Shown: positions 1,337-31,741, numbered from the stretch's first letter. The stretch: DNA of 32,000 nt from Opitutales bacterium (GCA_965219535.1 CBDCNV010000002.1:1500001-1532000); one strand, 5' to 3'. The notes: generated by a model not told the origin, from the sequence alone. Program-made: numbers and translations.

Positions 1337-1465
1337 GTCGAAAGTCGAAGATCGATCAGGGAATAGCCACAAAAAGCACAAAAGGCACAAAACCGAAATT
1401 TGCACCGCAGAGGCGCAGAGGTGGAATTGGAGGAGTCTAAAGTCTAAGGTCGAAAGTCGAAAGTG
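1337..1465. repeat. spacer word arrays: forward GTCGAAR/GTCTAAR heptamers plus a CACAAAARG nonamer run
   Basis: GTCGAAAGTCGAAG lies at 1337-1350. A 3 x 9-nt run CACAAAAAG CACAAAAGG CACAAAACC lies at 1368-1394. GTCTAAA GTCTAAG GTCGAAA GTCGAAA lies at 1435-1462. Confidence 0.9.
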
Positions 1466-1485
1466 GGAAAAAGCAAAATGTTGTT

Positions 1486-1655
1486 CAGGTGAAACACGGT
1501 GCATGATCTCAATGTCATCCATCCCGCAGATGCGGGAGGATTGACAATGGCTATTCCTAACGCGTTTTTTAAAATCATGATTTTTAAAAACGCGTAGGAA
1601 ACAGCCGACACTCAGCTGTGCTGAGTTATTGCGATCAAGCACCGTGTTTCACCTG
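1486..1655. other. 170-bp element closed by a perfect 17-bp inverted repeat with three internal hairpins (structured RNA or MITE candidate)
   Basis: CAGGTGAAACACGGTGC (1486-1502) pairs with GCACCGTGTTTCACCTG (1639-1655). Inside are a CCCGC/GCGGG hairpin (1523-1536), a 36-bp near-perfect palindrome ACGCGTTTTTTAAAATCATGATTTTTAAAAACGCGT (1560-1595) and an ACTCAGC-TGT-GCTGAGT hairpin (1610-1626). Confidence 0.6.
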
Positions 1656-1821
1656 ATAGTTGTTCTCTGTCATACTATAAAATCCATAGTAATGTCTTTT
1701 CTCCAACTTAATTCCTAATCCGTGCTATCTGCGTCACCCGCGGTTCACTCTCCCCGATCTTCCCGGCTTTCCTGTAAAATCTTTATAATTTATTTCATCT
1801 GTGTTATCTGCGGTTCAATTT

Positions 1822-1867
1822 CTTAACCTAAAACCTAACACTTAAAACTTAACACGCGCTTTAGCGC
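1822..1867. repeat. reverse-orientation TTARGTK heptamer array followed by a GCGC hairpin
   Basis: CCTAAAA CCTAACA CTTAAAA CTTAACA lies at 1827-1854, followed by GCGCTTTAGCGC. On the minus strand this sits directly downstream of the stop of the flavoprotein gene. Confidence 0.85.
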
Positions 1868-1887
1868 TTCTCTGCGGTGAATGGGAT

Positions 1888-3531
1888 CTATCTTAAGTTC
1901 GAGAGATCATAGTCGGGGTGGTTTTCGGTGATTGCCTGGAGTTGGATCTGCGTAAAGTTGGGATCGTTGAGGGCTAGCTTGTCAAAATACACGAGCACTT
2001 GTCCCTGCTCCATCAAGGTGTTCTGTAGTTCCTGCACATCGATGTTCCGCGGTGCACACTCATTAACGACCGCCATCGAAGCGGCCTGACCGGCAGCTTG
2101 CCCGAGTGCCATCCAGACGGGCTCCATTCGAAGTGACGAAAAGGCGACGTTCGACGATGAGAGGGAAGCGGTGACAAGAAGGCCGTTAACTTTTTCCGGG
2201 AGGATTGCCCGGTAGGGGATGGTTGCCGGCCGGTTCGGTGACTTCAGTCGATTGCGGAACCAGATGGTACCTTCGAGGAGTTGAAACCCATCGCTCGTTT
2301 CGGCGATGGCGCCTTCATCTTCCCGGTTGCGGCAGGCATGACCGTCAAAGCTGTGTTCACAGATACCGATTGTGTCCTTGTGTATAGGTGGGCGGAGCCG
2401 TCTTTCCGGGGGTTTGGAATCATGTTCGGTTATTGTATACTCGCCCTGTATTCGGCGACCCTGACGCACGTAAAGTTGCCAGGGGAAATGTTCACTATCC
2501 GGGTATTCGTCAGCGGGTAAGCCGAAGCGTGAGACTTCTGTTTGCGGCACGCGGGCTACGGCCGGATCATTTTGCATAAAGTAAAGTAAACCCAGGGTAT
2601 AATCTTTGTATTGCTTGTATAATTTATCTCTGGTTTCCCAGTTCCCGTCCGGCCAGCCGCTGCAGAGTGTCGCGAGATCGATACTGGTTAATGCTTCGAT
2701 GTGTCCGTTGACGCAGTATTTCCTGTTCGCAAGTGGATTGAGCCAGAGGATCTCTGCCAGACAGCGTACCCTTCCGGTTGTGAAGTCGGTAAGTATGCTT
2801 TTGTACATAGGGTAGAAATCATCATACGCATCCGGCTTGGCAATGGGTACGCGTTTTTCCGGATCATCAGTTAGTGTAAGTCGAAAACAGAACGCCTGAA
2901 TAAGGTCACTCGGTTCACCTGTACTCAGCGGGTGTAACTCCTGGTGGTTTTGGCGCCAGTCGTGGTAAATAATGCCGGCGTATTTCTCATCATAGTCCTT
3001 ACGTCCCTCTCGTCCAGCGCGGTAGCTCACTCCCGCTGCGGCAGCGAAATCCCCTTCGTAGGTGCCGTCGATGGCGACCTTGTGCTGAATGGTAATTGTG
3101 TTGTTGTTCGCTCGGTCGAGGTAACGTGAACCGAGGACGGTATCGCCTTCCTTAATTACCTCACTCAGTTCAAGATTTTTGAAAGTCTGAAGATTAGTTT
3201 CCGCGGCAATCATCTGATCGAGAATTTTTTCAGAAACACCGGGCTCCATGAAACGCCCCCCGAGAGTCAGGCTGTACTGGTCAGAACCGGGTCCGTATTG
3301 GGTTTCATAATAGGTGCGAATGTGCGAAAGAAATTCTGTGTGGATGCCACCAAAAGCATTCTCCCGGAGGGAATCGACAAGGCCCAGTCCCGAGGCTGCC
3401 ATGCCCCCAAAATGATTGCCGCGTTCGATGAGGATAGTTTTGCGACCGCAGCGCGCCGATGCGAGGGCGGCGGTAATGCCCGCTACCGTACCCCCGTAGA
3501 CGAGGATTTCGTATGTCTTTTCTTTTTCCAT
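1888..3531 (-). CDS. FAD-dependent oxidoreductase (FAD_oxidored / PF12831-like)
   Basis: 547-aa ORF. The N-terminus has a dinucleotide-binding motif, ILVYGGTVAGITAALASARCGRKTILIERG (GxGxxG followed by an acidic residue). The size and the C-terminal MALGQAAGQAA segment fit this flavoprotein family, recalled from memory. Confidence 0.75.
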   Translation of the reverse strand: MEKEKTYEILVYGGTVAGITAALASARCGRKTILIERGNHFGGMAASGLGLVDSLRENAFGGIHTEFLSHIRTYYETQYGPGSDQYSLTLGGRFMEPGVSEKILDQMIAAETNLQTFKNLELSEVIKEGDTVLGSRYLDRANNNTITIQHKVAIDGTYEGDFAAAAGVSYRAGREGRKDYDEKYAGIIYHDWRQNHQELHPLSTGEPSDLIQAFCFRLTLTDDPEKRVPIAKPDAYDDFYPMYKSILTDFTTGRVRCLAEILWLNPLANRKYCVNGHIEALTSIDLATLCSGWPDGNWETRDKLYKQYKDYTLGLLYFMQNDPAVARVPQTEVSRFGLPADEYPDSEHFPWQLYVRQGRRIQGEYTITEHDSKPPERRLRPPIHKDTIGICEHSFDGHACRNREDEGAIAETSDGFQLLEGTIWFRNRLKSPNRPATIPYRAILPEKVNGLLVTASLSSSNVAFSSLRMEPVWMALGQAAGQAASMAVVNECAPRNIDVQELQNTLMEQGQVLVYFDKLALNDPNFTQIQLQAITENHPDYDLSNLR

Positions 3532-3545: not shown

Positions 3546-3797
3546 GTCTAAGGTCGAAGGTCGAAAGTCAAAGGGGAAGAGAGGGGAGAGAAATCAGTGA
3601 ACAGTGAACAGTGAACAGTGAAGAATAGAGTGAACAGTGATTCATATGCGGATAGACGCGGACGCGATCAGCCGACGCCCGTTGGGCTATGGCCGACAGG
3701 CACCATGCGTCCTCCATTGAATTTTGACGAAGACGATGAGGCAGACGAAGACGAAGGTGGCTTTTAGCGCCTAAAACCTAACACCTAAAACTTAACA
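3546..3797. repeat. spacer mosaic made of five module types
   Basis: Modules in order: GTCTAAG GTCGAAG GTCGAAA GTCAAAG (3546-3573); GTGAACA heptamers (3597-3640); a GCGGACGCG...GGCTATGGCCGAC...GTCCTCCATTG module (3655-3719); TTTTGAC fused to 2 x 18-mer GACGAAGACGAWGRKGSC (3722-3761); reversed heptamers CCTAAAA CCTAACA CCTAAAA CTTAACA (3770-3797). Confidence 0.9.
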
Positions 3798-3800
3798 CTT

Positions 3801-4820: not shown

Positions 4821-5119
4821 GTCAAAAAGTCATATCAATTGCCGATTTGAGGGATGTCGGGCTTCGCCCTCGGTACGGATTGTCGATTTTCGATTGAAGA
4901 TTAGATAGCCACAAGAGGCACAAAAGACACAAGAAAGAAATTTAACCACGAATGAACACGAATGATTTGAAGGAGTCGAAGGTCGAAAGTCAAAAGGGAA
5001 GAGGGGGGAAGCGCATTCGCGCGTGTTAAGTTTTAGGTGTTAGGTTTTAGTTGAAATATTTAGATGTGCGAAGATGAATAAAACCCTATGCATTCGACTT
5101 TTGACCTTTGACTTTAGAC
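4821..5119. repeat. divergent-gene spacer mosaic bounded by inverted GTC-A-run arrays
   Basis: Modules in order: GTCAAAAAGTCA (4821-4832); a 29-nt module GATGTCGGGCTTCGCCCTCGGTACGGATT (4853-4881); ATAGCCACAAGAGGCACAAAAGACACAAG (about 4904-4932); GTCGAAG GTCGAAA GTCAAAAG (4975-4996); a GCGC hairpin; TTAAGTT TTAGGTG TTAGGTT (5023-5050); reverse arm TTCGAC TTTTGAC CTTTGAC TTTAGAC (5093-5119). Confidence 0.9.
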
Positions 5120-5124
5120 ATTTG

Positions 5125-5146
5125 AAGGTTGCAGACTTGCAACCTT
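5125..5146 (+). promoter_or_regulatory. hairpin/palindrome abutting the AKR start codon
   Basis: AAGGTTGCA (5125-5133), a 4-nt loop GACT, then TGCAACCTT (5138-5146). The ATG at 5147 follows immediately. Confidence 0.45.
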
Positions 5147-6149: not shown

Positions 6150-6525
6150 ATCGAAGGTCAAAAGGGAAGAGCGCCAAAGCGCGTGGTAAGTATCAGGTTT
6201 AAGATGAATAGGTGGAGCGGGCTGTCCCAGCGCGCTTCCGACATCTGATATTCCAGGAGGCTGTCATTATGCAACCGACATTCCCCTGGATTGCCGCGCT
6301 ACGCTCGCAATGACAAAAGGGGAAAAATATACGCGGGTGCGCGCTTTTAGTCGAAGGTCTAAGGTCTAAAGTCGAAAGGGAAGAGCGCTGGAGCGCGATT
6401 TAAGTATTAGGTTTTAGGTGAAGTACGTTAAAAGTCGAAGGTCGTAAGTTTAAAGTGGGGACAACAGCAAACCATGGACGGTGCATCTCATATTCACATT
6501 CGACTTTTGACCTTTGACTTTTGAC
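6143..6525. repeat. spacer mosaic bounded by inverted GTC-A-run arrays
   Basis: Forward units lie at 6143-6164, 6350-6377 (GTCGAAG GTCTAAG GTCTAAA GTCGAAA) and 6434-6454. Also present: GAGCGC-N4-GCGCG hairpins with TTAGG-type words (6169-6203, 6383-6423); a GGTGGAGCGGGCTGTCCCAGCGCGC module (6211-6235); a half copy of the CTCGCAATGACAA hairpin element (6262-6316). The reverse arm TTCGAC TTTTGAC CTTTGAC TTTTGAC is at 6499-6525. Confidence 0.9.
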
Positions 6526-7281: not shown

Positions 7282-7287
7282 AGCGCT

Positions 7288-7412
7288 GTCAAAAGTCTAA
7301 GGTCGAAAGTCGAAAGCGGGGAGAATCAGTGAACAGTGGAGTATGCTCTACATATATTCTTTTCTGCATTTGCGCAATATAGCGTTCGACTTTAGACCTT
7401 TGACATTTTGAC
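7288..7412. repeat. spacer bounded by inverted GTC-A-run arrays
   Basis: The forward arm GTCAAAA GTCTAAG GTCGAAA GTCGAAA is at 7288-7315. GTGAACAGTGG is at about 7328-7338. The reverse arm TTCGAC TTTAGAC CTTTGAC ATTTTGAC is at 7385-7412. Confidence 0.9.
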
Positions 7413-7434: not shown

Positions 7435-8355
7435 ATGCCTATCGTATTTAAAGATAAGCTATCCCCGTTTCCGGCAATGACGCCGGGGCAGCGGCTCTAC
7501 CTGGACGTCAACGGTTACGTGGTGGTTGAAAACACGTTGACACATGATGAGGTGAATCGTCTGCGTGATGCGATCTACGAATTGAGACAGAAGTTTTTTG
7601 ACGCGGAAGACCCATTGAAGCATTCTATTGGCACATGCAGAGTAAGCGCCGACAAATGCAATAAGTTTTTTGCTAGCTTTCACCGTATTTTAGAAGCGGA
7701 CGAAAGGTTCCTGGAACATTTCATCCACCCGCGGATTGTGAACCTGGCGGAGGAGGCAGTCGGTGGAAAAGTGCTCCTGGAAGAGGCTGCGGTGATCGTC
7801 AATTCCCGCGACCCGGAGGTCGATCCAGATAAACCGTATACATACGGCTTTCACCGGGGAGGGCAACCGGGCTTCGACAGCTATATCTATGACGATCTTT
7901 ATCACTGCACGTTTACCCGCACACTAACTAACCTGACTGACATTGGGCCAGACGATGGGGGCACGGCCTTGATCGCCGGCAGTCACAAGCTCAGCTGCAA
8001 TGAAAATGAAATGGTCGCCGCCGCTTATGAAAATCCCGATTTGATTCACCACGTTGAAGCGCCAGCGGGTTCCACGATGATCATGTATGAAACAACGATT
8101 CATTCCACGAGTCCCATCCGCAGCGACCGCGAGCGAGTGATGATCCTCGGTAGTTACGCGCATCCCAAGCACCAGGTGCAGGGTGGTGCGTGGTCCGACG
8201 CGGTAATTGCGAAAGCCCCAGAGGAATCGCGCGAGATACTCACCGGAAGACCCTTCTGGACATGGCCCGAGCGACATCGCAAGTTAGGCGATGCACCGAA
8301 TAAAGAGAATCAACCTTATGTGGCAAGAATGTGGTCGGTGGATCATGAAGCGTGA
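7435..8355 (+). CDS. PhyH-family Fe(II)/2OG oxygenase-fold protein with H-R-G in place of the H-x-D motif
   Basis: The start was moved to the ATG at 7435 (MPIVFKDK...). PhyH landmarks are present: DDGGTALIAGSHK and the distal TTIHSTSPIRSDRER. The proximal motif reads YGFHRGGQPG (His codon 7852-7854, Gly codon 7858-7860). Confidence 0.75.
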   Translation: MPIVFKDKLSPFPAMTPGQRLYLDVNGYVVVENTLTHDEVNRLRDAIYELRQKFFDAEDPLKHSIGTCRVSADKCNKFFASFHRILEADERFLEHFIHPRIVNLAEEAVGGKVLLEEAAVIVNSRDPEVDPDKPYTYGFHRGGQPGFDSYIYDDLYHCTFTRTLTNLTDIGPDDGGTALIAGSHKLSCNENEMVAAAYENPDLIHHVEAPAGSTMIMYETTIHSTSPIRSDRERVMILGSYAHPKHQVQGGAWSDAVIAKAPEESREILTGRPFWTWPERHRKLGDAPNKENQPYVARMWSVDHEA

Positions 8356-8380
8356 TAGCGCGTATGCGCTTTCACGCTTC
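8347..8380 (+). other. compound hairpin spanning the stop codon
   Basis: GAAGCGTGA (8347-8355, containing the TGA stop) pairs with TCACGCTTC (8372-8380). An inner AGCGC-GTAT-GCGCT stem lies at 8357-8370. The GTCAAAAA array follows directly. Confidence 0.55.
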
Positions 8381-8585
8381 GTCAAAAAGTCAAAAGGTCA
8401 AAAGGTTGGGAGGGGAGATGCGGACGCAACGGAGTGCGTCCCTCCAGAAGATATTTCACATCCACGCATTTCCGTATCATCGCATGCACGCATATGCATA
8501 TTTCCGCTTTGTCGCATCAACTCATACGCGCATTTTCGCGTTTTCGCATATTCCTTTTGACCTTTTGACTTTTTGACCTTTTGAC
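8381..8585. repeat. spacer bounded by pure inverted octamer arrays
   Basis: The forward arm GTCAAAAA GTCAAAAG GTCAAAAG is at 8381-8404. A GGAGGG...GGACGCA-ACGGAG-TGCGTCCCTCC hairpin lies at 8408-8445, and a CGCAT-rich word block at 8461-8553. The reverse arm CTTTTGAC CTTTTGAC TTTTTGAC CTTTTGAC is at 8554-8585. Confidence 0.95.
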
Positions 8586-9476: not shown

Positions 9477-9647
9477 GTCAAAAGTCGAAGGACGGGAGAA
9501 GCGAATATGCTTAACTACATTAGAAGCGGATTGTAGAGAGGGGGATGGATGATCGCGGACGCGACGGAGCGAGTCCCTCCATTGGGTGCTCCGCATATAC
9601 GCGTACACTCATAAACGCATTTCCCTTTTGACCTTTTGACCTTTGAC
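9477..9647. repeat. spacer bounded by inverted GTC-A-run arrays
   Basis: The forward arm GTCAAAA GTCGAAG is at 9477-9490. A GCGGACGCGACGGAGCGAGTCCCTCCATTGG module lies at about 9555-9585. The reverse arm CTTTTGAC CTTTTGAC CTTTGAC is at 9625-9647. Confidence 0.9.
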
Positions 9648-10382: not shown

Positions 10383-10455
10383 GCCAAAAAGTCAAAGGAC
10401 GGGAGAAGCGAAAATACGTATATCCGATTTCGACTTTGGACCTGCGACTTTCGAC
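10383..10455. repeat. short convergent-gene spacer that still carries both inverted arms
   Basis: The forward arm GCCAAAAA GTCAAAG is at 10383-10397. The reverse arm TTTCGAC TTTGGAC CTGCGAC TTTCGAC is at 10428-10455. Confidence 0.85.
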
Positions 10456-12634: not shown

Positions 12635-12853
12635 GTCAAAAGGGTCAAAAAGTCAAAAAGTCTGACGATTGCAGATTGTCGATTGAAGCGGACGCGATCA
12701 GCCGACGCCCTTTGGGCTATGGCCGACCATCCTTCGCTTTCAGCTATGGACGGCAGGGAGGCGGTAGCGCGTCGAACAGAAGATGCTCTGCTTTTCCGTA
12801 TCATCGCAAACATGAAAAAACACATTTCCCTTTTGACTTTTTGACCTTTTGAC
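12635..12853. repeat. divergent-gene spacer bounded by pure inverted octamer arrays
   Basis: The forward arm GTCAAAAGG GTCAAAAA GTCAAAAA is at 12635-12659. GATTGCAGATTGTCGATTGAAG is at 12667-12688, and a GCGGACGCGATCAGCCGACGCCCTTTGGGCTATGGCCGAC module at 12688-12727. The reverse arm CTTTTGAC TTTTTGAC CTTTTGAC is at 12830-12853. Confidence 0.95.
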
Positions 12854-12868: not shown

Positions 12869-13726
12869 ATGCTTTCTCAATCACAGATTGAACATTTTAA
12901 CATTTTTGGGGTTCTTATTTTAAGAAATGTTCTAAATGAGGAAGATGTCCGGAAGTTAAACGCGGAGTGGGACGCTAAACTGGCGACGACCACGGATGGG
13001 GGTGCTCATGGGGAAAAAAAATATATAATGAGCTGGCCCAGTCTTGGACCAGATACTCCATTCACGGGATCGCTCTTAGAAGATCCACGGGTAAACAAAA
13101 TCGTAGAGTCGATTTACAAGGATGGGTATTACGGGATTTCCTGCAATTCGAGCAGCAAAGCGGGTGAAACTCCCTGGCATCCCGATTCCAATTTTAAAAA
13201 TCTTCACGGGATAAAGGTGGTCACCTATCTGCAGCCGCTCGATGGCGATAATGGAGCCCTGCGTGTCATTCCCGGATCGCACCGTTACCCCATACATGAC
13301 GAGATCAAGCAAATCAAAATGAGTAAGACTGAATTTGATGGCGTGAAGCGAGAGAAAAAAGTTGATGATGCCAATGCAGAGACAAACGGTGGTCTCGCTA
13401 TTGGTGAAGTCCCCGCTCTTATCTGCTCCACGAATCCGGGAGATATAATTGTTTTTGATTTCAGGGTTTGGCATGCCAGCACCGGTGGAGCCTATGACCG
13501 TCGCCTGTTATCAATGATGTTCTTGAAACAGGCGGCAACGCCGGAAGAAGAGGATGCCATCAACGAGCAAGTGCAATTATCGCAAAAAACTCGAGCAGCT
13601 CGCTCTAAGGAGAGCTTTGCCAAGCCGCAATCGGAGTATCACCCGGATTGGATAGCCAATCCCGATAATGATCCCCGCCGGCAACGCTGGATAGATTGGA
13701 TGAGACTGAAAGGATACTTTCAGTAG
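12869..13726 (+). CDS. PhyH-family Fe(II)/2OG dioxygenase, subfamily shared with 19498-20310 and 20650-21495
   Basis: 285-aa ORF with WHPDS (HxD), DNGALRVIPGSHR and FRVWHASTGGAYDRR. The C-terminal motif WIANPDNDPRRQRWIDW is shared with the two paralogues. Confidence 0.8.
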   Translation: MLSQSQIEHFNIFGVLILRNVLNEEDVRKLNAEWDAKLATTTDGGAHGEKKYIMSWPSLGPDTPFTGSLLEDPRVNKIVESIYKDGYYGISCNSSSKAGETPWHPDSNFKNLHGIKVVTYLQPLDGDNGALRVIPGSHRYPIHDEIKQIKMSKTEFDGVKREKKVDDANAETNGGLAIGEVPALICSTNPGDIIVFDFRVWHASTGGAYDRRLLSMMFLKQAATPEEEDAINEQVQLSQKTRAARSKESFAKPQSEYHPDWIANPDNDPRRQRWIDWMRLKGYFQ

Positions 13727-13914
13727 TCAAAAGGTCAAAAAGTCAAAAGGTCAAAAGGTTGGAGACGCGAACGCGTGTTACCTTATTGTCATTGCGAGGA
13801 GCAATGTGACGAAGCAATCCAGGCGGATTACTATACGCAACCGAATTTCCCTGGATTGCTTCGTTTCGCTCGCAATGACAAAAGGGTGGAACGCGCTGTC
13901 CCTAGCGCGTTAAG
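13726..13914. repeat. left part of a spacer: octamer array plus a 96-bp long hairpin element plus a GGTGGAACGCG module
   Basis: GTCAAAAG GTCAAAAA GTCAAAAG GTCAAAAG lies at 13726-13757 and starts on the last base of the TAG stop. The hairpin TTGTCATTGCGAGG...CCTGGATTGCTTCGTTTCGCTCGCAATGACAA lies at 13786-13881. GGTGGAACGCGCTGTCCCTAGCGCGTT lies at 13885-13911. Confidence 0.9.
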
Positions 13915-13932
13915 ATTTTTTATATTAATTAA

Positions 13933-14667
13933 GGGTCATGCCTAGAACAGAGGGTATCTTAAGCACATATTAAGGATGTTACGATGGAGGTTTTGATGAC
14001 GATGGTTAAAGCGATATTCAGTTTCTTTGAGGTGCAGTTGGAAGGTCCTACGAGAAAGACCTTTGAACTTAGCCAATCGAAGTTTAGCAAAAGCCCAAAA
14101 AGATTCAATCCCGTTAATGTGGGAGTGTCCCTGGGCAAACTCGTTGTCGTTGTGATTGACACGGTAATGCTTCTTATAGCCCAGATCCACGAGGCCGTTG
14201 TAAGCACGCCACCCGTCAGAATAAAGCACACTGTCAAAAGTAACTCTCCCTTGGATCACCGCATGCAGAGCGGCTCTGGAGACATTGCGTACAACCTGGG
14301 TATAGACTTTCCCATTACGCTTGAGCAACCCGAAGACGGGCACTTTCTTGAATGCACCCCGACCTCTTTGCCCTGGAATTCTTTTGCCTCCAAAGTAGGA
14401 CTCATCCATTTCCACCGACCCCCTAAAAGGCGAGGCCTGCGCACATTGCTGCAACAAACGCTCCCGCAACAAGCGCAAATAACGGTTGACCGTGTTACGA
14501 TTCAATCCTGTCAATTGGGCTATCTTCAACGCTTCCATATCCAAGCTAAAACACTTTACTAACTGCCGAAATTTGGCCTCAGAAATTTTTGAACGATGTA
14601 CATACTTATTTCTCATTTGTCTAGAATAGCTTACACATCTGATATGTGTCTATTCTAGGCATGACCC
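13933..14667 (-). mobile_element. IS1595-family (ISXO2-like) insertion sequence, 735 bp
   Basis: The terminal inverted repeats are GGGTCATGCCTAGAACAG (13933-13950) and CTATTCTAGGCATGACCC (14650-14667), matching at 17 of 18 positions. They are flanked by 8-bp TTAATTAA on both sides (13925-13932, 14668-14675), consistent with an 8-bp target duplication. The element holds a single transposase ORF. Confidence 0.8.
13942..14616 (-). CDS. ISXO2-like DDE transposase (IS1595 family)
   Basis: 224-aa ORF. The motif VEMDESYFGGKRIPGQRGRGAFKKVPVFGLLKRNGKVYT is characteristic of ISXO2-like transposases as I recall them. Confidence 0.8.
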   Translation of the reverse strand: MRNKYVHRSKISEAKFRQLVKCFSLDMEALKIAQLTGLNRNTVNRYLRLLRERLLQQCAQASPFRGSVEMDESYFGGKRIPGQRGRGAFKKVPVFGLLKRNGKVYTQVVRNVSRAALHAVIQGRVTFDSVLYSDGWRAYNGLVDLGYKKHYRVNHNDNEFAQGHSHINGIESFWAFAKLRLAKFKGLSRRTFQLHLKETEYRFNHRHQNLHRNILNMCLRYPLF

Positions 14668-14681
14668 TTAATTAATTAAGA

Positions 14682-14883
14682 AGCGTGCTAGGAAACCAGC
14701 CGACGCCAAAGCTATGGCGGTCAGGCAGCCCGCTCCACCTTTGATTAAAATTTACAGCTTTTTAATTTTTTACCTTTTGACGAAGACAAAGAGGCAGACG
14801 AAGACAAAGAGGCAGACGAAGACAAAGAGGCAGACGAAGACAAAGAGGCAGACGAAGACAAAGAGGCAGACGAAGACAAAGAG
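14682..14883. repeat. right part of a spacer: reversed GGTGGAGCGGGCTGCC...GCCATAGC module plus CTTTTGAC fused to a perfect 18-bp tandem array
   Basis: The reverse complement of 14700-14739 reads GGTGGAGCGGGCTGCCTGACCGCCATAGCTTTGGCGTCGG. CTTTTGAC is at 14774-14781. GACGAAGACAAAGAGGCA occurs 5 times plus a 15-nt partial copy (14779-14883), all perfect. Confidence 0.95.
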
Positions 14884-16276: not shown

Positions 16277-16440
16277 GTCAAAAAGTCAAATGGTCAAAAA
16301 GTCAAAAGGTTTAAGACGCAAACGAGATTGTCATGATTTAAAGTGAAAATTTCAGGGTATATAGTAATTCCATTGATCATAGAAACTTTCATTTATAATC
16401 ACTTTTACTTTTTGACCTTTTGACGTTTTGACCTTTTGAC
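16277..16440. repeat. divergent-gene spacer bounded by pure inverted octamer arrays, AT-rich centre
   Basis: The forward arm GTCAAAAA GTCAAATG GTCAAAAA GTCAAAAG is at 16277-16308. The reverse arm CTTTTAC TTTTTGAC CTTTTGAC GTTTTGAC CTTTTGAC is at 16402-16440. A TATAAT hexamer sits at 16394-16399. Confidence 0.95.
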
Positions 16441-17960: not shown

Positions 17961-19344
17961 TGTCGGTACAACCAGGACATGGTTTACAGATTTAGATCAA
18001 GACATGGTTTACACTTTGTGAGGGATGCTGAACGGTAATCGGGTTATATAGTTAAGTTAATGTTATGCGGTTTTAGAGGTTTGGCTGGCATTGTTGGGGC
18101 CGCAAGCGGCCCCAATGAAAGCAGCCGTTGAAAGGTCAATCTGACCGATTCTGAGAGTGGCAAAGTAAACATCGAAGTGTACCGTGTCTAGTGGTTTTAG
18201 TCCAACGCTCCAACCGGCGAGGGCGGTGGAGATAGGAATCTGGAAGCCATCGAGTTTGATAGACCCGCTTTTTGAGACCCGGCGAGTCATCAAATCATAG
18301 CTGATATCGGCAGGAGTGCCACCGTAAGGATGAGAGCTGTGCTGATAGATTTCAGAGGGCGTGCTCATGGCAAGAGCCGCATGGGGGCGTTCTTCATTGA
18401 AGGTCTTGCGCCACAGATCGAAGGCCACCTGTTGGGTGCGAAGATCGTCCTGGGCATGTTTTTGCAACTCCTCTTTGATATCGCGATGGAGACGCTCATG
18501 GGCACCGTTATCCTGGGGTTTACCCGGACGTCCACGCTCGAGATTGATCCCTAAGGCCAGCCACCAGGCCGCCAGTTTGCTCAGGCCCAGGACCGCATTG
18601 GCACTGGCAAAGGGACTGCCGTTGTCGCTGCGGATGCAAGCGGGAAGTCCATAGCGTTCAAAGAGTTTTGTGAAGCATTCACGCACCGCTTCGCTACGGG
18701 CTGAACTGAGCACCCGCACCTCTAATACATAGCGGCTCCATTCATCCCGTACCGTCAAAGGTTCACAACGGTTGCCATCAACGGTGTGCCACCACCCTTT
18801 GAAGTCTACGCTCCACACTTCGTTACAGCCACTGGCCTTGACGCTGCGGTAAAGGCGTCCGCTTTTTTGAGCGCTTCTGCGCCGACGCTTTTGCACCAGT
18901 CCCGCACGTTCCAAGACCCGTTTCACGCTCGAGTCTGAGGGGGCCTTCCCGTAACGCCTCTGGTAAAGCTCGCGGATCTTGTAGGGGCCCCACGTCGGGT
19001 GATGATGCTTGAGTTTGATCAGCGTACATACTACTGATTCGGATAGTTCCTGAACACTTCCATGCGGTCGGCGTGAGCGCTCGTGCAACCCCTCCATCCC
19101 TTCGCTCAGGAAGCGCTTCTTCCATTTATACCCTGTCGGTCGGCTGATCCCGTAGTCTTCACACAGCTCGTTCATCTTTACTCCCGGTTGCATCGATTCC
19201 AGGGCGAATTGGTATCTTTGGTCCATTTTATTTGTTTCCTTCCATGACATCATACCCCTTACTTAGCATCCTTCTTTCTTTGGCAATCTGTAAAGGATGT
19301 CCTGAACCTTTTGTGTAAAGAATGTCTTGAACCTATACCTGTCA
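17961..19344 (-). mobile_element. IS481-like insertion sequence (boundaries approximate)
   Basis: The element holds a single HTH plus rve/DDE transposase ORF. The imperfect termini are TGTCGGTACAACCAGGACATGGTTTACAG (17961-) and the reverse complement of 19313-19344, TGACAGGTATAGGTTCAAGACATTCTTTACAC. Each end also carries a second subterminal copy of CARGACATNNTTTACAS. Confidence 0.55.
18063..19253 (-). CDS. IS481-family transposase (HTH plus integrase-core DDE)
   Basis: 396-aa ORF. The N-terminal HTH region reads ELCEDYGISRPTGYKWKKRF. The DDE landmarks are WSVDFKG, IRSDNGSPF and QDNGAHERLHRDIK. Confidence 0.8.
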   Translation of the reverse strand: MMSWKETNKMDQRYQFALESMQPGVKMNELCEDYGISRPTGYKWKKRFLSEGMEGLHERSRRPHGSVQELSESVVCTLIKLKHHHPTWGPYKIRELYQRRYGKAPSDSSVKRVLERAGLVQKRRRRSAQKSGRLYRSVKASGCNEVWSVDFKGWWHTVDGNRCEPLTVRDEWSRYVLEVRVLSSARSEAVRECFTKLFERYGLPACIRSDNGSPFASANAVLGLSKLAAWWLALGINLERGRPGKPQDNGAHERLHRDIKEELQKHAQDDLRTQQVAFDLWRKTFNEERPHAALAMSTPSEIYQHSSHPYGGTPADISYDLMTRRVSKSGSIKLDGFQIPISTALAGWSVGLKPLDTVHFDVYFATLRIGQIDLSTAAFIGAACGPNNASQTSKTA

Positions 19345-19487
19345 AAAGTCGAAGGTCGGAAATCTAAGGGTGGAGGGAAATTAATTATAAAACTTTCTGG
19401 GATGGAAGATGTCGCTGCGCTCGGTAGCCGGGCTCGCAATGACAATTGGAAAAATCAACCTTGGACTTTTGACTTTCGACCTTTGAC
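19341..19487. repeat. spacer remnant right of the IS, bounded by inverted GTC-A-run arrays
   Basis: The forward arm GTCAAAA GTCGAAG GTCGGAAA TCTAAGG is at 19341-19369. GCTCGCAATGACAA, a fragment of the long-hairpin element, is at about 19432-19445. The reverse arm CTTGGAC TTTTGAC TTTCGAC CTTTGAC is at 19460-19487. Confidence 0.9.
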
Positions 19488-20347: not shown

Positions 20348-20638
20348 GTCAAAAGGTCAAAAAGTCAAAAGGTCAAAAAGGGAGAGTGCGGGGAATTCAG
20401 TGAACAGTAAACAGTGGGGGAGTTGTGGATGGATACTAACAGTGCCAACTTTTCTTTCCTGAACCCTGAACCCTGAACCCTGAACCCTGAACCCTGAACT
20501 CTGAATGGTGAACCTTCCATCTATAACAGCAGACTAAGACGAAGAGGCAGACGAAGACGAAGAGGCAGACCCGTCTTCGCAGTAGTCTACTCCGTGGCAA
20601 GTAAAGACGAAGATGGCTTACGCCGCTTAAAACTTAAC
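20348..20638. repeat. spacer mosaic with four word arrays
   Basis: Modules in order: GTCAAAAG GTCAAAAA GTCAAAAG GTCAAAAAG (20348-20380); GTGAACA GTAAACA (about 20399-20412); CCTGAAC 6 perfect copies plus 2 degenerate (20458-20513); 2 x 18-mer GACTAAGACGAAGAGGCA GACGAAGACGAAGAGGCA (20532-20567) with a CGAAGACG/CGTCTTCG stem (20552-20559 / 20572-20579); reversed CTTAAAA CTTAAC (20626-20638). Confidence 0.95.
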
Positions 20639-21530: not shown

Positions 21531-21650
21531 GTCAAAAGTCAAAAGTCGAAGGTCGAAAGGGGAGAGCGCTGACGCGCGTGGTAGATTTTAGGTGTTAAGT
21601 AATTCTATCTAATTCTTACCGCTTTCGACCTTTAACCTTAGACTTTCGAC
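21531..21650. repeat. spacer bounded by inverted GTC-A-run arrays
   Basis: The forward arm GTCAAAA GTCAAAA GTCGAAG GTCGAAAG is at 21531-21559. A GAGCGCTGACGCGCG hairpin with TTTTAGGTGTTAAGT lies at 21563-21600. The reverse arm CTTTCGAC CTTTAAC CTTAGAC TTTCGAC is at 21622-21650. Confidence 0.9.
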
Positions 21651-24929: not shown

Positions 24930-25144
24930 GTCAAAAGGTCAAAAGGTCAAAAAGTCAAAAAGTCAAAAGGGGAAGAGCGCTGACGCGCATGTTAAGTGTA
25001 AGGTAGGGAGGTGGAGCGGGCTGCCTGATAGCCATAGCTTAGCATTACAAAGCGCGCTTCTCTATTTCTAACTGATACAAACGCGGTAGGGACACCGCGT
25101 TCCACCTAATATGCGTACGCGTATTTACTTTTTGACCTTTTGAC
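24930..25144. repeat. spacer bounded by pure inverted octamer arrays
   Basis: Five forward units lie at 24930-24969. Also present: a GAGCGCTGACGCGC hairpin with TTAAGTG words; GGTGGAGCGGGCTGCCTGATAGCCATAGCTT (25009-25039); a reversed GGTGGAACGCGGTGTCCCTACCGCGTT module (25080-25106). The reverse arm TTTTTGAC CTTTTGAC is at 25129-25144. Confidence 0.95.
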
Positions 25145-28511: not shown

Positions 28512-28548
28512 GTATAAGATAGTGTATCGAAGATTTACGATTTCAGAC

Positions 28549-29460: not shown

Positions 29461-29486
29461 CCTGTTTACGGTTTAAAAGAGATAGC

Positions 29487-29630
29487 CACAAAAAGCACAT
29501 AAAGCACAAGATAGAAATAAAATGAGGTGGAGCGGGCTGTCCCTAGCACGCTTTTACTTATTGATATAATCAAACGCGCTAGGGACCAACCTTCGCCAAG
29601 GCTATGGCTGGCAGGCAGCGCGTTCCACCC
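29487..29630. repeat. spacer without GTC-A-run arms: CACAWAAAG nonamers plus a long imperfect inverted pair of GGTGGA modules
   Basis: CACAAAAAG CACATAAAG CACAAG lies at 29487-29510. GGTGGAGCGGGCTGTCCCTAGCACGC (29526-29551) faces the reversed composite module at 29574-29630 (...GCGCTAGGGAC...GGCTATGGCTGGCAGGCAGCGCGTTCCACCC). Confidence 0.85.
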
Positions 29631-29755
29631 TTTATTAAATAATAATACATTTATTTTTAATTCTGTATGAGTCCGGCTTTCCGGCTTGGAAGATGTCGTT
29701 CCGCGACTGCGGAACTCGGAACTGATTGTCTGGCTTTCTGGAGCGCATCCACGCG

Positions 29756-30583
29756 TTAGCGCGGTTCCGCTTTCAGAGTCAGTTCTTCTTTGTTATCGAG
29801 CCCTGCAACGACGACGAAAGTCTGCTCTTTTGGTCGTCCCTCTTTGGGAACGTAACGGACATTTGGAGAGAAGTAAGCATAGAGCGCAGTATTTCTTGAA
29901 TGGGGGGAAGTGTTAGGATTCGACCCGTGCATGATAAGGCTATGAAAGAATAAGATATTCCCCGCTGACAAGGGTACCTCTATTTGATCGGATAAATCTA
30001 CGCCATCGACAAGCGCTCTTACTTCCAGACCGCTGACAAGTCGCCCCCCAGCCGGGGTGCTCTCTTTCATTTTCAGCCCCCATTTATGACTTCCGGGAAC
30101 AACTTTAAAACAACTGTTAGCGGTGTTCGCGTCGTCAAGTGCGATGCTCACGGTAACCAGTCTAGGTGGCTCCATCGGCCAATAGGCAGAATCCTGGTGG
30201 AATTCGTGACCTGATCCATGAAATGCGGGTTTAAGCATCAAGGTGCTTCTAAAAAGAAGCAGATCGGGTCCGATCAAATTCTGCACGACTTCAATCAGTC
30301 GCGGGTGCTTAGAAAGTCTGTTGAAAACGGAAGAATGCACACGAGTGTTTTCAATTTTTCTCAACAAGGGCGTTCCGTCATCACGATTTATATTTTCGGC
30401 GTTCGGTTCGCGCTGAAAGTTAATCGATCTTGGATCGGCTTTCGCTTCAAATTCCGCGGCGAGGGTATGCAATCGTTGAATTTCTTCTTGGCACTCAATA
30501 ATCTCCTCCGGGCTGATCAGGTTTTCCATGATGAGATATCCCTGGTCCTCGAAAAATGAAAGCTGTTCGGCCTGATTCATCAT
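29756..30583 (-). CDS. PhyH-family Fe(II)/2OG dioxygenase (classical phytanoyl-CoA-dioxygenase-like motifs)
   Basis: 275-aa ORF with FHQDSAYW (HxD), NSCFKVVPGSHKWG and LIMHGSNPNTSPHSRN. Confidence 0.85.
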   Translation of the reverse strand: MMNQAEQLSFFEDQGYLIMENLISPEEIIECQEEIQRLHTLAAEFEAKADPRSINFQREPNAENINRDDGTPLLRKIENTRVHSSVFNRLSKHPRLIEVVQNLIGPDLLLFRSTLMLKPAFHGSGHEFHQDSAYWPMEPPRLVTVSIALDDANTANSCFKVVPGSHKWGLKMKESTPAGGRLVSGLEVRALVDGVDLSDQIEVPLSAGNILFFHSLIMHGSNPNTSPHSRNTALYAYFSPNVRYVPKEGRPKEQTFVVVAGLDNKEELTLKAEPR

Positions 30584-30595
30584 ATGATCGCATAA

Positions 30596-30728
30596 GTCAA
30601 AAGGTCAAAAGGTCAAAAAGTCAAAAAGGAAAATGCGTTTATGAGTGAAAGCGTAGATGCGGATATGCGATTAAATAAAATTACATTGATTTAAACTTTT
30701 TGACATTTTGACCTTTTGATATTTTGAC
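30596..30728. repeat. divergent-gene spacer bounded by pure inverted octamer arrays; duplicated at 31625-31741
   Basis: The forward arm GTCAAAAG GTCAAAAG GTCAAAAA GTCAAAAAG is at 30596-30628. The reverse arm CTTTTTGAC ATTTTGAC CTTTTGAT ATTTTGAC is at 30696-30728. The central 68 nt (GGAAAATGCGTTTATGAGTG...GATTTAAAC) are nearly identical to 31657-31725. Confidence 0.95.
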
Positions 30729-30752
30729 TTAAACCCGCGAAAGCTGATTTTT

Positions 30753-31673
30753 ATGCCACGGATTAATAAAAGCATCGACTTGATGGAGCGGGGGGAGACG
30801 GTCTATGTAACCTTAAAAATACCGGAGCTTAGCTATGACGCGGGCCGGGACCAGGCGCAGACCTGGGCAGATTTGATCGCAATCGATCTTGAGCACCTCG
30901 CCTACGATATCATAGGCCTGACACAATTCATGCGCGGCCTTAAAGATGGCGGGCCTACGGCGAGCGGGCACCTGACACCGACGGTGCTCGTATCTCCCCC
31001 TGCGAATTGCACGAGTATTGAGGAGGTCATTTATAACGCATGGCAAGTCAGACAGATCCTATCGACGGGTGTTCACGGTATCTACTACCCGCAAGCGCGC
31101 GATGCCGAATCAGTGAGGGCCTACGTAACGACCACCCGTTACACTTTTCAGACGATTGGACGCGACCTTGGCCTGTCCGAGGGATTACGCGGCCACGGCG
31201 GTGAGAATCAAGCGTCAGAGATCTGGGGGATCAGTCCCGCCGAGTACCTGATGAAAGCAGACCCTTGGCCTCTGAATCCCGAGGGGGAGCTTTTACTGGG
31301 GCTGAAGATCGAAGACCGGCAAGGTATAGCTAATGCCGATGCAATCGCGAGCACGCCAGGACTCGCATTTGTTGCCGTGGGCGTGGCAGATCTTTCGATG
31401 TCTCTCGGCTATCAGTCTTTTCCCGGCTGGCCGTACCCGCCTGATTTACTAAATGGGCGGTTAGCTGCAAAATCAGCCTGTGAGAAGGCAGGCATTGCCT
31501 ATTTTACGGGATGGCCTGATTCCTCATTACCCCATGACGAACAATTGAAACATCTTTTCGAGGAAGGAAGTGACAAAATGTTATTGGCGCAGAACAGGGA
31601 GTTTGCCGAAGCAGGGAGGAATTTGTCAAAAAGTCAAAAGGTCAAAAAGTCAAAAAGGAAAATGCGTTTATGA
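30753..31673 (+). CDS. divergent HpcH/HpaI-aldolase-fold protein with a repeat-encoded Lys-rich C-terminal tail
   Basis: 306-aa ORF with IDLEHLAYD (His), LKIEDRQG (Glu) and VGVADLSM (Asp). The position I align with the catalytic Arg reads TVLVSPP. The last 17 codons (LSKSQKVKKSKRKMRL) are the octamer array plus the next module. Confidence 0.65.
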   Translation: MPRINKSIDLMERGETVYVTLKIPELSYDAGRDQAQTWADLIAIDLEHLAYDIIGLTQFMRGLKDGGPTASGHLTPTVLVSPPANCTSIEEVIYNAWQVRQILSTGVHGIYYPQARDAESVRAYVTTTRYTFQTIGRDLGLSEGLRGHGGENQASEIWGISPAEYLMKADPWPLNPEGELLLGLKIEDRQGIANADAIASTPGLAFVAVGVADLSMSLGYQSFPGWPYPPDLLNGRLAAKSACEKAGIAYFTGWPDSSLPHDEQLKHLFEEGSDKMLLAQNREFAEAGRNLSKSQKVKKSKRKMRL

Positions 31674-31741
31674 GTGAAAGCGTAGATGCGGAAATGCGAT
31701 TAAATAAAATTACATTGATTTAAACATTTTGACATTTTGAC
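31625..31741. repeat. second copy of the 30596-30728 spacer; its forward arm lies inside the 3' end of the upstream CDS
   Basis: The forward arm GTCAAAAA GTCAAAAG GTCAAAAA GTCAAAAAG is at 31625-31657. The reverse arm CATTTTGAC ATTTTGAC is at 31725-31741. Confidence 0.95.

Follow-up and report, generated by a model that had tools for sequence, protein, structure and literature searches.

Inverted arms of tandem 7-8 nt units in most intergenic spacers of a narrow Opitutales clade: a candidate family of MITE/BIME/Correia-like palindromic elements

Several described families of small intergenic repeats resemble the arrays considered here. Correia elements of Neisseria carry promoters, often lie 5′ of genes and can form RNA hairpins (PMC3184786), and BIMEs and REPINs are lineage-specific assemblies of REP clusters in alternating orientation that are mobilised by RAYT transposases (PMC3733652, PMC3184786). 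Likewise, the BOX elements of Streptococcus pneumoniae and the minisatellite MITE of Porphyromonas gingivalis combine variable tandem internal units with complementary ends and a stem fold (PMC3184786, PMC4596501). The TAACTGA repeats of the Beggiatoaceae are tandem 7-nt units placed mostly a few nucleotides upstream of the starts of genes without Shine-Dalgarno motifs; they are patchily distributed across phyla, and their sets are direct in 169 cases and indirect in 1 (PMC4679880).

The arrays that concern us belong to a single narrow, uncultured clade of Opitutales (Verrucomicrobia) in which most intergenic gaps carry an element. Within the window, that is, the whole 32,000-nt stretch analysed, GTCAAAAG has 39 exact matches on both strands, compared with 1.6 ± 1.4 (maximum 5) in dinucleotide shuffles, and relaxing the unit pattern gives 128 units, 104 of them in non-coding DNA, which makes up 19.5% of the window. 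There are two unit families, an 8-mer (GTCAAAAR) and a 7-mer (GTCNAAR), with one family per arm. In a 187-kb sample of the clade, drawn from 16 loci, we counted 143 arrays, with two units in 53, three in 29, four in 57, five in 4 and more than five in none; arm length is defined rather than left to free slippage, with a cap at about four units or ~28-32 bp. When neighbouring arrays in this sample lie less than 500 bp apart, the order is forward then reverse 39 times and reverse then forward once, with 5 forward-forward and 6 reverse-reverse pairs (binomial p = 7e-11), and no window spacer has the reverse-then-forward order. The orientation bias relative to gene ends that the original prediction had proposed is evident in a metaplot of 52 ORFs, where sense units outnumber antisense units 60 to 1 at 0-40 nt past stops and antisense units number ~95 against 4 at 10-60 nt ahead of starts.

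On our own gene map of the window, 14 spacers have both arms and 3-4 have a forward arm alone (1337-1463, 3546-3573, 20348-20379 and a single unit at 28446; Table 1); every arm pair of the original prediction was recovered where it had been placed. Arrays are absent from two spacers, 17935-18062, which adjoins an IS481 copy, and 29461-29755. The smallest spacer is indeed 82 bp long (10380-10461), and a seeming 3-bp junction at 4125/4129 is a single gene broken by a 55-bp duplication. The arms lie 0-37 nt from coding ends and directly adjoin gene-specific hairpins at start or stop codons: perfect stems of at least 6 bp occur in 36% of flanks as opposed to 5% of random windows (p = 1e-10), and no gene-end hairpins of this sort were found in the array-free relative.

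Table 1. Arrays, elements and gene-end hairpins of the window (window coordinates; 7-mer and 8-mer denote the unit family)
Feature	Coordinates	Strand	Details
Two forward arrays	1337..1463		1337-1350 (2 units), 1435-1463 (4 units, 7-mer); reverse partner absent from spacer
Lone forward arm	3546..3573		4 units, 7-mer; 14 nt from start of FAD oxidoreductase gene (1888-3531, minus strand); on opposite side one TTTTGAC only, at 3722
Full element	4965..5128		Forward arm 4975-4996, reverse arm 5092-5119, both 7-mer; bordered by 9-bp direct repeat ATTTGAAGG (4965-4973, 5120-5128) resembling a target-site duplication
Element	6350..6525		Forward arm 6350-6378, reverse arm 6498-6525, 7-mer; centre opens with module M1 (GGGAAGAGCGC..GCGCG plus GTKTTAR heptamers)
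Element	7288..7412		Forward arm 7288-7316, directly adjoining the stop-codon hairpin; reverse arm 7385-7412; 7-mer; centre 73 nt
Element	8381..8585		Forward arm 8381-8404 (3 units), reverse arm 8554-8585 (4 units), 8-mer
Element	9477..9647		Forward arm 9477-9490, reverse arm 9625-9647
Short element, 82-bp convergent spacer	10391..10455		One forward unit 10391-10397, degenerate reverse arm 10428-10455; matching gene end of L038 has CTTTTGAC-type units in their place
Element, divergent spacer	12635..12853		Forward arm 12635-12659, reverse arm 12830-12853, 8-mer
Split element	13726..14781		Forward arm 13726-13757 (4 units), whose first G also ends the TAG stop; reverse remnant 14774-14781; an IS1595-family insertion is nested between the two, along with further small palindromic repeats
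Element, divergent aminotransferase/pyruvate kinase spacer	16277..16440		Forward arm 16277-16308, reverse arm 16409-16440, 4 units each, 8-mer; L117 and L119 have no forward arm here
Element	19341..19487		Forward arm 19341-19369, reverse arm 19460-19487, 7-mer; units decay toward centre; IS481 copy (17925-19339) directly to the left
Lone forward arm	20348..20379		4 units, 8-mer; 5′ side of minus-strand PhyH gene 19498-20310; adjoined by palindrome 20314-20347
Element	21531..21650		Forward arm 21531-21559, reverse arm 21622-21650, 7-mer; centre 21560-21621
Element	24930..25144		Forward arm 24930-24969 (5 units, window maximum), reverse arm 25129-25144 (2 units), 8-mer
Element A copy 1	30596..30728		Forward arm 30596-30627, centre 30628-30696 (69 nt), reverse arm 30697-30728, 8-mer
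Element A copy 2	31625..31741		Forward arm 31625-31656, centre 31657-31725, reverse arm 31726-31741; upstream ORF 30753-31673 runs through forward arm into centre
Gene-specific hairpin (example)	8347..8380	+	GAAGCGTGATAGCGC-gtat-GCGCTTTCACGCTTC; contains TGA stop 8353-8355; adjoins forward arm
Like hairpin, coding end to arm	5125-5146		
Like hairpin, coding end to arm	7274-7287		
Like hairpin, coding end to arm	9443-9476		
Like hairpin, coding end to arm	13705-13724		
Like hairpin, coding end to arm	16443-16457		
Like hairpin, coding end to arm	19489-19508		
Like hairpin, coding end to arm	24908-24929		
Like hairpin, coding end to arm	25145-25180		

Comparing these elements with the described families reveals clear likenesses and equally clear differences. 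As in MITEs and Correia elements, they are small, non-coding and numerous in intergenic DNA, often just 5′ of genes; their arms are terminal inverted repeats of defined length, and similar copies stand at many unrelated sites and are present or absent between close relatives; some copies here have flanking direct repeats of 8-9 bp. However, Correia elements have unique 26-bp ends, a TA duplication and a conserved body of 100-157 bp, whereas here there are four-unit arms of 7-8 nt units, mosaic centres and no TA rule; ends, variable centres and the missing TA rule do not fit a Correia element as such. The elements also differ from both in filling most spacers, flush with coding ends, and in lacking target duplications at most copies. 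With BIMEs and REPINs they share a mosaic intergenic make-up of short inverted repeats and hairpins at gene ends and between genes, but the REP unit is an imperfect palindrome of 20-40 bp with a GTAG/CGTC head, while the present units are 7-8 nt long, not self-complementary and without such a head, and stand in tandem within arms 38-450 bp apart. These non-palindromic units do not fit a REP, BIME or REPIN as such; a RAYT gene (IS200/IS605-like) was not seen in ~190 kb of clade DNA. BOX and the P. gingivalis MITE are likewise modular, with a variable number of tandem units and stem-forming ends, but they have the tandem module inside the element, at 20-45 bp, rather than as a terminal arm of 7-8 nt units. 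The cyanobacterial STRR and the TAACTGA repeats are tandem 7-nt units in 2-6 copies, confined to intergenic DNA. Tandem units of 7-8 nt and a 5′ preference occur here as well, yet the TAACTGA sets have no inverted partner and bracket no genes, in contrast to the 39-to-1 partner rule and the 3′-end copies found here. Finally, attC sites and the Vibrio cholerae repeats are imperfect palindromes built around a variable centre; they occupy the gap between one gene and the next from the stop codon onward and would give the same picture of bracketed genes. The genes here, though, are ordinary chromosomal ones on both strands (pyruvate kinase, ABC transporters), and tandem units make up the arms in place of R/L core sites; housekeeping genes on both strands and loci 2 Mb apart on one chromosome do not fit an integron cassette array, and no integrase domain turned up in the window.

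It is informative to ask how much of the apparent gene-end polarity is a property in its own right, as originally proposed. A layout of forward arm, centre and reverse arm is its own reverse complement, so that outward GTCAAAAG appears at both ends of any gene on either strand; where such a layout fills the spacer, every gene must read YTTTTGAC before its start and GTCAAAAG past its stop. The bracketed appearance of genes is geometry and holds no information on the direction of transcription. The architecture itself is real and covers tandem, convergent and divergent gene pairs, but two accompanying claims went too far: BIME/REPIN, Correia, BOX and attC sequences would give an equal mirror pattern, contrary to the view that no known family does so, and the notion of monocistronic genes without operon-type junctions does not generalise, given array-free operon-type junctions in relatives. 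What is unusual is that the arms are built of tandem units, that the elements come close to saturating the spacers and that they adjoin genes directly. Furthermore, the unit that co-evolves is the spacer and not the gene. The period class of the arms agrees in 33 of the 38 pairs that share a spacer but in only 21 of the 44 that flank a gene (Fisher p = 2e-4), the match in unit composition between the two arms of a spacer that had been noticed earlier holds up (Spearman 0.72, p = 3e-5), and the arms of the PhyH-a/PhyH-b spacer (8381..8585) are both 8-mer in the window and both 7-mer in L117.

The arrays are not an assembly artefact. Same-strain assemblies (L001, L115, L116) carry identical arrays, and Illumina as well as long-read assemblies made independently from relatives have arrays too, among them the sister species L119-L121, L125 and L138 (Illumina SPAdes, Logan assemblies, JGI contigs). 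Arrays are present where a relative's pyruvate kinase is 86-89% identical and absent from L118, at 76% identity. Array-bearing loci are scattered over a 4.5-Mb chromosome, and the elements match nothing in Rfam, whether the gathering threshold or a limit of E <= 0.1 is applied, and nothing among plasmids, phages and viral contigs. Several observations have the look of mobility: orthologous gene ends differ between relatives in the presence of arms, array-bearing spacers are places where whole genes have come or gone together with one spacer (L117 lacks HpcH and L119 lacks three genes), and target-site-like direct repeats of 8-9 bp flank 2 of 27 elements (ATTTGAAGG, TTAAATCC), the other 25 having none. 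A partner transposase or recombinase was not found in the ~190 kb of clade DNA examined, nor was an autonomous relative with a transposase for the same ends; nowhere do a forward and a reverse arm enclose a gene in the manner of an autonomous copy, and the IS481 and IS1595 copies of the window have ends unrelated to the arms.

The centres, 38-450 bp long with a cluster at 64-81 bp, hold IS1595 and several other small palindromic repeat families, and modules recur in different spacers. In two orthologous spacers of sister species the centre is exactly inverted between its arms while the flanking genes are colinear: centre 21560-21621 matches L117 at 58 of 70 positions as reverse complement and at 36 of 70 directly, and the centre of element A copy 1 matches L016 at 68 of 69 as reverse complement. 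Element A, which lies between divergent genes, is the only element with near-identical full-length copies. The centres of copies 1 and 2 agree at 68 of 69 positions, and across four copies the 69-nt centre is kept at 67-69 of 69 while flanking genes differ by ~9%; copies that are 97-100% identical stand beside paralogous genes of only ~75% identity. Conservation so far above that of neighbouring genes points to a function. Taken by itself, the centre shows neither a significant fold nor a clear promoter.

Taking these observations together, the account we favour, with roughly an even chance of being right, is that the elements form a lineage-specific, non-coding, palindromic mosaic family of the MITE/BIME/Correia kind whose tandem-array arms recombine and accept nested inserts. 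Each consists of two inverted arms of ~28-32 bp, with up to four tandem units of one family in each, around a variable centre, and copies would have multiplied inside this narrow group of Opitutales either by transposing or through recombination that uses the shared arms as anchors. Recombination between arms could flip a centre and keep its arms alike, and may be what links the inversions to the concordance described above; the observed nesting of small repeats and IS elements between arms may in turn hold the arms at the outer edges. As likely side effects, each arm would supply the adjoining gene with outward-facing TTGAC boxes that resemble -35 elements and with a leader rich in U, and read-through RNA over the spacer would form a stem of ~15-30 bp.

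That stem invites an alternative in which the arms serve as host processing or insulation signals, like rRNA stalks or the 3′ inverted repeats of chloroplast mRNAs: the arm-arm stem (~15-30 bp) of read-through RNA would be cut by RNase III or would block polymerase or exonucleases, and start and stop hairpins would cap and protect mRNAs. In keeping with the original prediction, all folded spacers form an arm-arm stem (z = -1.4 to -9; 12 of 13 below -2.8), and a duplex of ~30 bp, the length of a full arm, suffices for RNase III. Hairpins directly adjoin arms at start and stop ends alike, operon-type junctions do without arrays, arm position is kept between species while centres turn over, and in tandem spacers arm mismatches are G.U-compatible in the sense RNA by 7 to 1. 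We nonetheless consider this explanation unlikely. The wobble bias is not significant (p = 0.07), arms are commonest (9/10) in divergent spacers, which no single transcript should cross, the gene-end hairpins are equally stable on both strands, many spacers have a single arm, and the system is absent from a fairly close relative and so is not an old host mechanism. Far less credible still is the suggestion that the 5′ (YUUUUGAC)n of a monocistronic mRNA pairs with its own 3′ (GUCAAAAG)n. It draws on the fact that most genes are bracketed, with 41 reverse-to-forward array pairs more than 500 bp apart in the 187 kb; however, the two sides of a gene are alike only at chance level (21 concordant against 23 discordant pairs; Spearman 0.17, p = 0.40), an arm of 7-mers cannot stay in register with one of 8-mers, and many genes have one arm only.

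Other alternatives place the function in DNA or at the 5′ end. Arms are found at 41 of 72 5′ ends (57%) and 26 of 73 3′ ends (36%; p = 0.013), and lone arms lie on the 5′ side in 15 cases and on the 3′ side in 6, as might be expected if (YTTTTGAC)n upstream of starts were a movable promoter part (a phased TTGAC -35) or a U-rich, S1-recruiting leader for genes without Shine-Dalgarno motifs, its 3′ copies being by-products of the palindromic layout. The 5′ flanks are A+T-rich (70%, against 53% in 3′ flanks) with T first in 76%, Shine-Dalgarno motifs are rare in flanks, and a consensus scan gives 34 promoter-like sites against 18.9 +/- 4.6 in shuffles, several of them taking the last array unit as -35 box; parallels exist in Correia elements (PMC3184786) and in the TAACTGA repeats, for which a similar upstream role in genes without Shine-Dalgarno motifs has been proposed (PMC4679880). 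Yet the 5′ bias is absent from array-rich metagenome loci (21 vs 20), the gap between arm and start codon varies (7-39 nt) with no fixed -10-like motif, arms stand in the same outward orientation at one third of 3′ ends, and the promoter-like excess follows trivially from the repetition of TTGAC, which leaves this explanation rather improbable. The two inverted centres raise the further idea that the arrays are sites of a site-specific invertase and that the centres carry promoters or other oriented signals, which would be turned on and off or redirected from one neighbouring gene to the other. Invertible promoters (invertons) of this type were reportedly described in Bacteroides and other gut bacteria by Jiang et al. 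in 2019, and here too inverted repeats flank a short intergenic segment that occurs in both orientations; element A lies between divergent genes, and its near-invariant inverted centre is what a functional invertible segment would lead one to expect. In contrast to invertons, inversion is seen between species only: consensus assemblies of the same strain from different samples agree in orientation, no invertase or nearby recombinase gene was found, the centre of element A is without significant fold or clear promoter, and ~2 inversions among few alignable orthologous centres at 10-20% divergence fit rare spontaneous recombination. We regard programmed inversion as very improbable.

The mobile-element account has its own difficulties. 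Target-site-like duplications at only two elements and the missing partner enzyme count against it, and random insertion fails to explain arms flush with coding ends or the gene-specific hairpins. Because the arms lie between any upstream promoter and the start codon at 57% of gene 5′ ends, selection against a purely parasitic element would be expected; the conserved centre of element A and the G.U bias in sense RNA, for what its p value allows, sit no more easily with it. A bolder and quite doubtful reading treats the arms as universal handles within a system that the host has adopted, in which a lineage-specific recombinase or domesticated transposase, or RNA-processing machinery, would read four-unit arrays at nearly every transcription-unit boundary, so that intergenic control cassettes could be inverted, exchanged between spacers and insulated from their neighbours. 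If this were true, the handles, along with the hairpins centred on start and stop codons, would give a bacterium a means of punctuating its regulatory DNA and shuffling it as cassettes throughout the genome.

Beyond the two unit families treated here, the window holds further heptamer arrays, built of CAGTGAA, CCTGAAC and GTGTTAG.

The arm pairs of the original prediction, tandem GTCAAAAG-type units running forward at the left edge of an intergenic spacer and as YTTTTGAC at its right edge, are all present in the window, a piece of bacterial chromosome (G+C 44-55%) in which GTCAAAAG occurs 39 times where 1.6 occurrences are expected. A looser unit pattern places 104 of 128 units in non-coding DNA, which makes up 19.5% of the window. 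Across 16 loci of the clade (187 kb) there are 143 arrays of at least two units, and where two neighbours are separated by less than 500 bp, their order is forward-to-reverse 39 times and reverse-to-forward once (p = 7e-11). This excess and the enrichment of the unit rule out a chance origin. An assembly artefact is likewise ruled out, because the same arrays appear in independent assemblies of the strain and recur in sister-species short-read assemblies, with long-read, Illumina, Logan and JGI data all represented. No tRNA gene adjoins an array in any locus. The observation is confirmed, and it is striking for its density and regularity.

The window holds ordinary metabolic genes, with seven PhyH-family dioxygenases, three HpcH/HpaI aldolases (the third truncated at the window end), a class-III aminotransferase, a pyruvate kinase and two solute-binding protein/permease fusions, as well as one IS481-family and one IS1595-family insertion sequence. 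Contigs of the ENA metagenome assemblies ERZ25067264 and ERZ25072670 are 99.8-100% identical to it, and parts of the 4.49-Mb chromosome OY829953.1 (“MAG: Opitutales bacterium”) are 90-93% identical, gene by gene. Further sister species were retrieved through pyruvate kinase orthologues, namely L117 (86% amino-acid identity; a 3.1-Mb contig of ERZ25072076), L119-L121 (89%; Illumina and Logan assemblies) and L118 (76%; a contig of ERZ28669063), and two additional relatives, L125 and L138, came from a metagenome scan. A genome-wide 16-mer scan, mostly chance among the matches listed, was of use only in finding Opitutales relatives. In L118 the arrays are absent and the spacers compact.

In a plot of units against the ends of 52 ORFs, some in the window and the others in its relatives, sense units lie 0-40 nt past stops and antisense units 10-60 nt ahead of starts, with almost no exceptions. 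The predicted layout is real, but its tie to gene ends follows from mirror symmetry: the succession of forward arm, centre and reverse arm is its own reverse complement, and outward reading from any coding end (5′ or 3′, on either strand) gives GTCAAAAG. Since the layout is self-reverse-complementary, the rule must hold for tandem, convergent and divergent gene pairs, and the bracketing pattern is uninformative on the direction of transcription. The informative contrast is between the two arms within one spacer and the two arms around one gene. In unit family (8-mer GTCAAAAR or 7-mer GTCNAAR), same-spacer arms are concordant in 33 cases and discordant in 5, whereas gene-flanking arms are concordant in 21 and discordant in 23 (Fisher p = 2e-4 between the two); an earlier, smaller test of arm likeness gave Spearman coefficients of 0.72 for spacers and 0.17 for genes. 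The orthologous spacer between PhyH-a and PhyH-b has two 8-mer arms in the window and two 7-mer arms in L117. The evolving unit is the spacer element. These counts disfavour the proposal that each mRNA pairs its own 5′ and 3′ ends, and circularisation of this kind is rejected on arm concordance. The companion proposal, that spacers fold with an arm-arm stem, holds for all of them (z = -1.4 to -9, 12 of 13 below -2.8), as is bound to happen with inverted repeats.

The number of units per array is 2 (53 arrays), 3 (29), 4 (57) or 5 (4) and never higher, and a full arm is a defined segment of 28-32 bp. Free microsatellite slippage is rejected because copy number halts at 4-5, and a microsatellite grown by slippage would lack so sharp a stop; the same unit in unrelated organisms reaches 20-28 copies. 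Centres measure 38-450 bp, with 15 of 39 falling within 64-81 bp, and are mosaics of other repeats: a module of GGGAAGAGCGC-N4-GCGCG followed by GTKTTAR heptamers, a CGCAT-rich module, arrays of the CAGTGAA and CCTGAAC heptamers, an 18-nt repeat, several small palindromic elements and, at one spacer, an IS1595 insertion that has ends of its own and a duplication of 8 bp. These modules are joined to the arm in fixed, mirrored orientation. The palindrome was not seen to extend into the flanks, with left flank complementary to right. One ORF of the window runs through a forward arm into the centre of element A, an element with a 69-nt centre, before its stop; 8-mer arrays in forward orientation are open in all frames, and in reverse orientation they contain TGA in every one.

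The arms recombine with each other, giving centre inversions: two centres are exactly inverted between their arms in orthologous spacers whose flanking genes are colinear. Orthologous gene ends vary in the copy number and unit type of their arms, and even in whether an arm is there. Four copies of the element A centre, one pair in the window and another in the sister-species locus L016, are 67-69/69 identical; the adjoining genes differ by ~9% between species and ~25% between paralogues. Sister species differ in gene content at array-bearing spacers, some having and others lacking whole genes together with one spacer, a pattern that duplication and loss through inter-array recombination could produce. 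Direct repeats of 8-9 bp, very unlikely to arise by chance, flank 2 of 27 elements and none of the other 25.

The best explanation, in which our confidence is roughly even, is a family of palindromic repeats that recombines. Arms sharing a spacer remain concordant, and other repeats are nested between them. The family would consist of lineage-specific, non-autonomous, palindromic mosaic elements in the same category as Correia and other MITEs, BIME/REPIN clusters and BOX (PMC3184786, PMC3733652, PMC4596501). They may have spread by transposition or by recombination anchored in their common arms, and recombination between arms would be the cause of arm concordance. Like MITEs, they have defined inverted ends, multiplicity and presence/absence variation, although target duplications occur in part only (2 of 27 elements) and no partner transposase is known for them. 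They lack the defining features of REP/BIME, Correia, attC and CRISPR. Rfam gave no match at any threshold, nor did plasmid, phage and viral (contig) collections, and in the searchable literature the array sequence occurs only in an unrelated reporter construct.

Some real features are not accounted for by an element family: the flush position of the arms, the hairpins at start and stop codons, the conserved invertible centre and the 5′ bias. Arms lie 0-37 nt from coding ends and are not scattered in the spacers, and what fills the short stretch between them is usually a gene-specific hairpin, immediately next to the arm, which often takes in the stop or start codon, in loop or stem. Perfect stems of at least 6 bp are found in 36% of gene-proximal flanks; random windows have them at 5% and centre-side flanks at 8% (p = 1e-10). 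Some stems are 18-23 bp long, and some co-vary between orthologues, as do the hairpins 3′ of pyruvate kinase in L117 and L119. Gene-end hairpins as an ancestral feature are rejected, being absent from the array-free L118; within the clade their association with arrays is weak (p = 0.06). Flush placement, hairpins, 5′ bias and a G·U bias keep three functional readings alive. That the arms are RNA-processing or insulation stems is unlikely. Arm mismatches in tandem spacers are G·U-compatible in sense RNA 7 times versus 1 (p = 0.07). RNA-specific selection on the gene-end hairpins is rejected, their stability being equal on both strands. It is decidedly unlikely that the 5′ arms are movable -35 boxes or U-rich leaders, for which the TAACTGA repeats of Beggiatoaceae (PMC4679880) and Correia promoters (PMC3184786) are precedents. 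Arms occupy 41 of 72 5′ ends and 26 of 73 3′ ends (p = 0.013), solitary arms stand on the 5′ side in 15 cases and on the 3′ side in 6, and 5′ flanks are A+T-rich with T first; the 5′ bias was not reproduced in metagenome loci, and no fixed -10 motif was found past the arms. Programmed inversion at the arms, which the two inverted centres bring to mind, we consider very improbable.

Palindromes between arm and start codon of two PhyH paralogues, kept in sister species, resemble operators, overlapping a -10-like hexamer, at which a common regulator would bind. Directly before the ATG of HpcH paralogues, a small hairpin with a T5 run shows a compensatory change between the window and L016, and may serve as an attenuator or in translation.

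Such a recombining family would be an unusual addition to the intergenic repeat families of bacteria, with ends made of four tandem 7-8 nt units, occupying most transcription-unit boundaries of a genome and flipping the DNA between its arms. Because more than half of the genes have an element between promoter and start codon, the elements must be compatible with expression or contribute to it, and the lineage is therefore a natural test case for mobile repeats becoming promoters, leaders and RNA-processing sites. Common arms offer a simple homologous-recombination route to gene loss, duplication and the shuffling of regulatory segments, a possible reason for the wealth of paralogues and the rearrangements in this neighbourhood. 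Knowledge of the elements aids gene-start calling in the annotation of Verrucomicrobia MAGs and accounts for contig breaks in their assembly.

Coordinates of features in the window and in comparison loci
Feature	Window	Other loci	Detail
Element A	30596-30728; 31625-31741		copies 1 and 2
Centre inverted against L016	30628-30696		68/69 as reverse complement, 41/69 direct
Centre inverted against L117	21560-21621		58/70 as reverse complement, 36/70 direct
9-bp flanking repeat	4965-4973 + 5120-5128		ATTTGAAGG
8-bp flanking repeat		L074	TTAAATCC
ORF entering element A	30753-31673		forward arm 31625-31656
PhyH palindromes, 30-34 bp	20314-20347; 21498-21529	L117 13070-13112, 14712-14743; L119 12575-12609	TTTTAATC-N4-6-GATTAAAA
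HpcH hairpin	31742-31764	L016 5650-5676	CCGC-GGAA-GCGG (window); CCTGC-GGAA-GCAGG (L016)
Larger inverted-repeat elements		L084 1119-1472; L105 1542-1755; L112 1564-1972	ends begin (GTCAAAAG)2-3; centres share AATGTACGCGCGT
Opposite-order arrays		L013 3889-3968; L044 552-631; seven similar loci	(YTTTTGAC)3-4, 25 nt, (GTCAAAG)3
Paralogue-rich stretches	7435-13726; 19498-21495; 29756-32000		seven PhyH, three HpcH, two binding-protein/permease fusions
Split epimerase gene	3811-4125 + 4129-4812		duplication 4066-4178
IS481-family copy	17925-19339		
IS481-family copy, another sample	3764/3765 (unoccupied)	L116 8391-9766	99% identical
IS1595-family element	about 13925-14690		inverted ends GGGTCATGCCTAGAA; flanking duplication TTAATTAA; between arms 13726-13757 and 14774-14781
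18-nt tandem repeat	14779-14883		GACGAAGACAAAGAGGCA; 5.8 copies, 100% matches
Shorter 18-nt repeats	3722-3756; 20529-20570		GACGAAGACAAAGAGGCA
Intergenic heptamer arrays	3595-3640; 28461-28514; 20458-20505; 5023-5050; 17921-17950; 1825-1855; 3770-3801		CAGTGAA, CCTGAAC, GTGTTAG/GTTTTAG
Small palindromic families in centres	6252-6321; 13775-13886; 8420-8446; 9560-9585; 12680-12727; 25010-25110; 29523-29640		TGTCATTGCGAG...CTCGCAATGACA; GCGGACGCGACGGAGCGCGTCC; GGTGGAGCGGGCTGTCCC...GGGACA..CGCGTTCCACC
MITE-like element	1480-1655	L038	CAGGTGAAACACGGTGC...GCACCGTGTTTCACCTG

Outside the clade, forward-centre-reverse pairs of the GTCAAAAG unit occur sporadically in Planctomycetales, Prevotella, Oribacterium, Bacteroidaceae and Chromatiales MAGs, and the metagenome scan met three-unit arrays sporadically in many unrelated organisms. 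The larger inverted-repeat elements on Prevotella and Oribacterium contigs may be a related mobile element spread across phyla. The opposite order of arrays, found at a conserved locus in Acutalibacteraceae and Clostridia MAGs, lies upstream of a gene, and its units overlap a textbook promoter (TTGACC, 17 nt, TATAAT); the locus is likely to be a regulated promoter whose binding sites are repeated, and to have no relation to the Opitutales elements.

The longest 18-nt repeat begins from a TTTTGAC unit and differs in length in another assembly of the strain (L001). An NAD-dependent epimerase gene is split into two ORFs by a perfect 55-bp tandem duplication (2.1 copies); on the same-strain contig L115 the extra copy is absent and the epimerase is a single intact gene of 316 aa. 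The IS481-family copy removes the last 26 codons of pyruvate kinase, leaving 494 aa where relatives have 520 aa. The GTKTTAR arrays are oriented outward from genes, as are the GTCAAAAG arrays, in 9 of 9 cases in the window, and both IS481-family insertions fall within such arrays.
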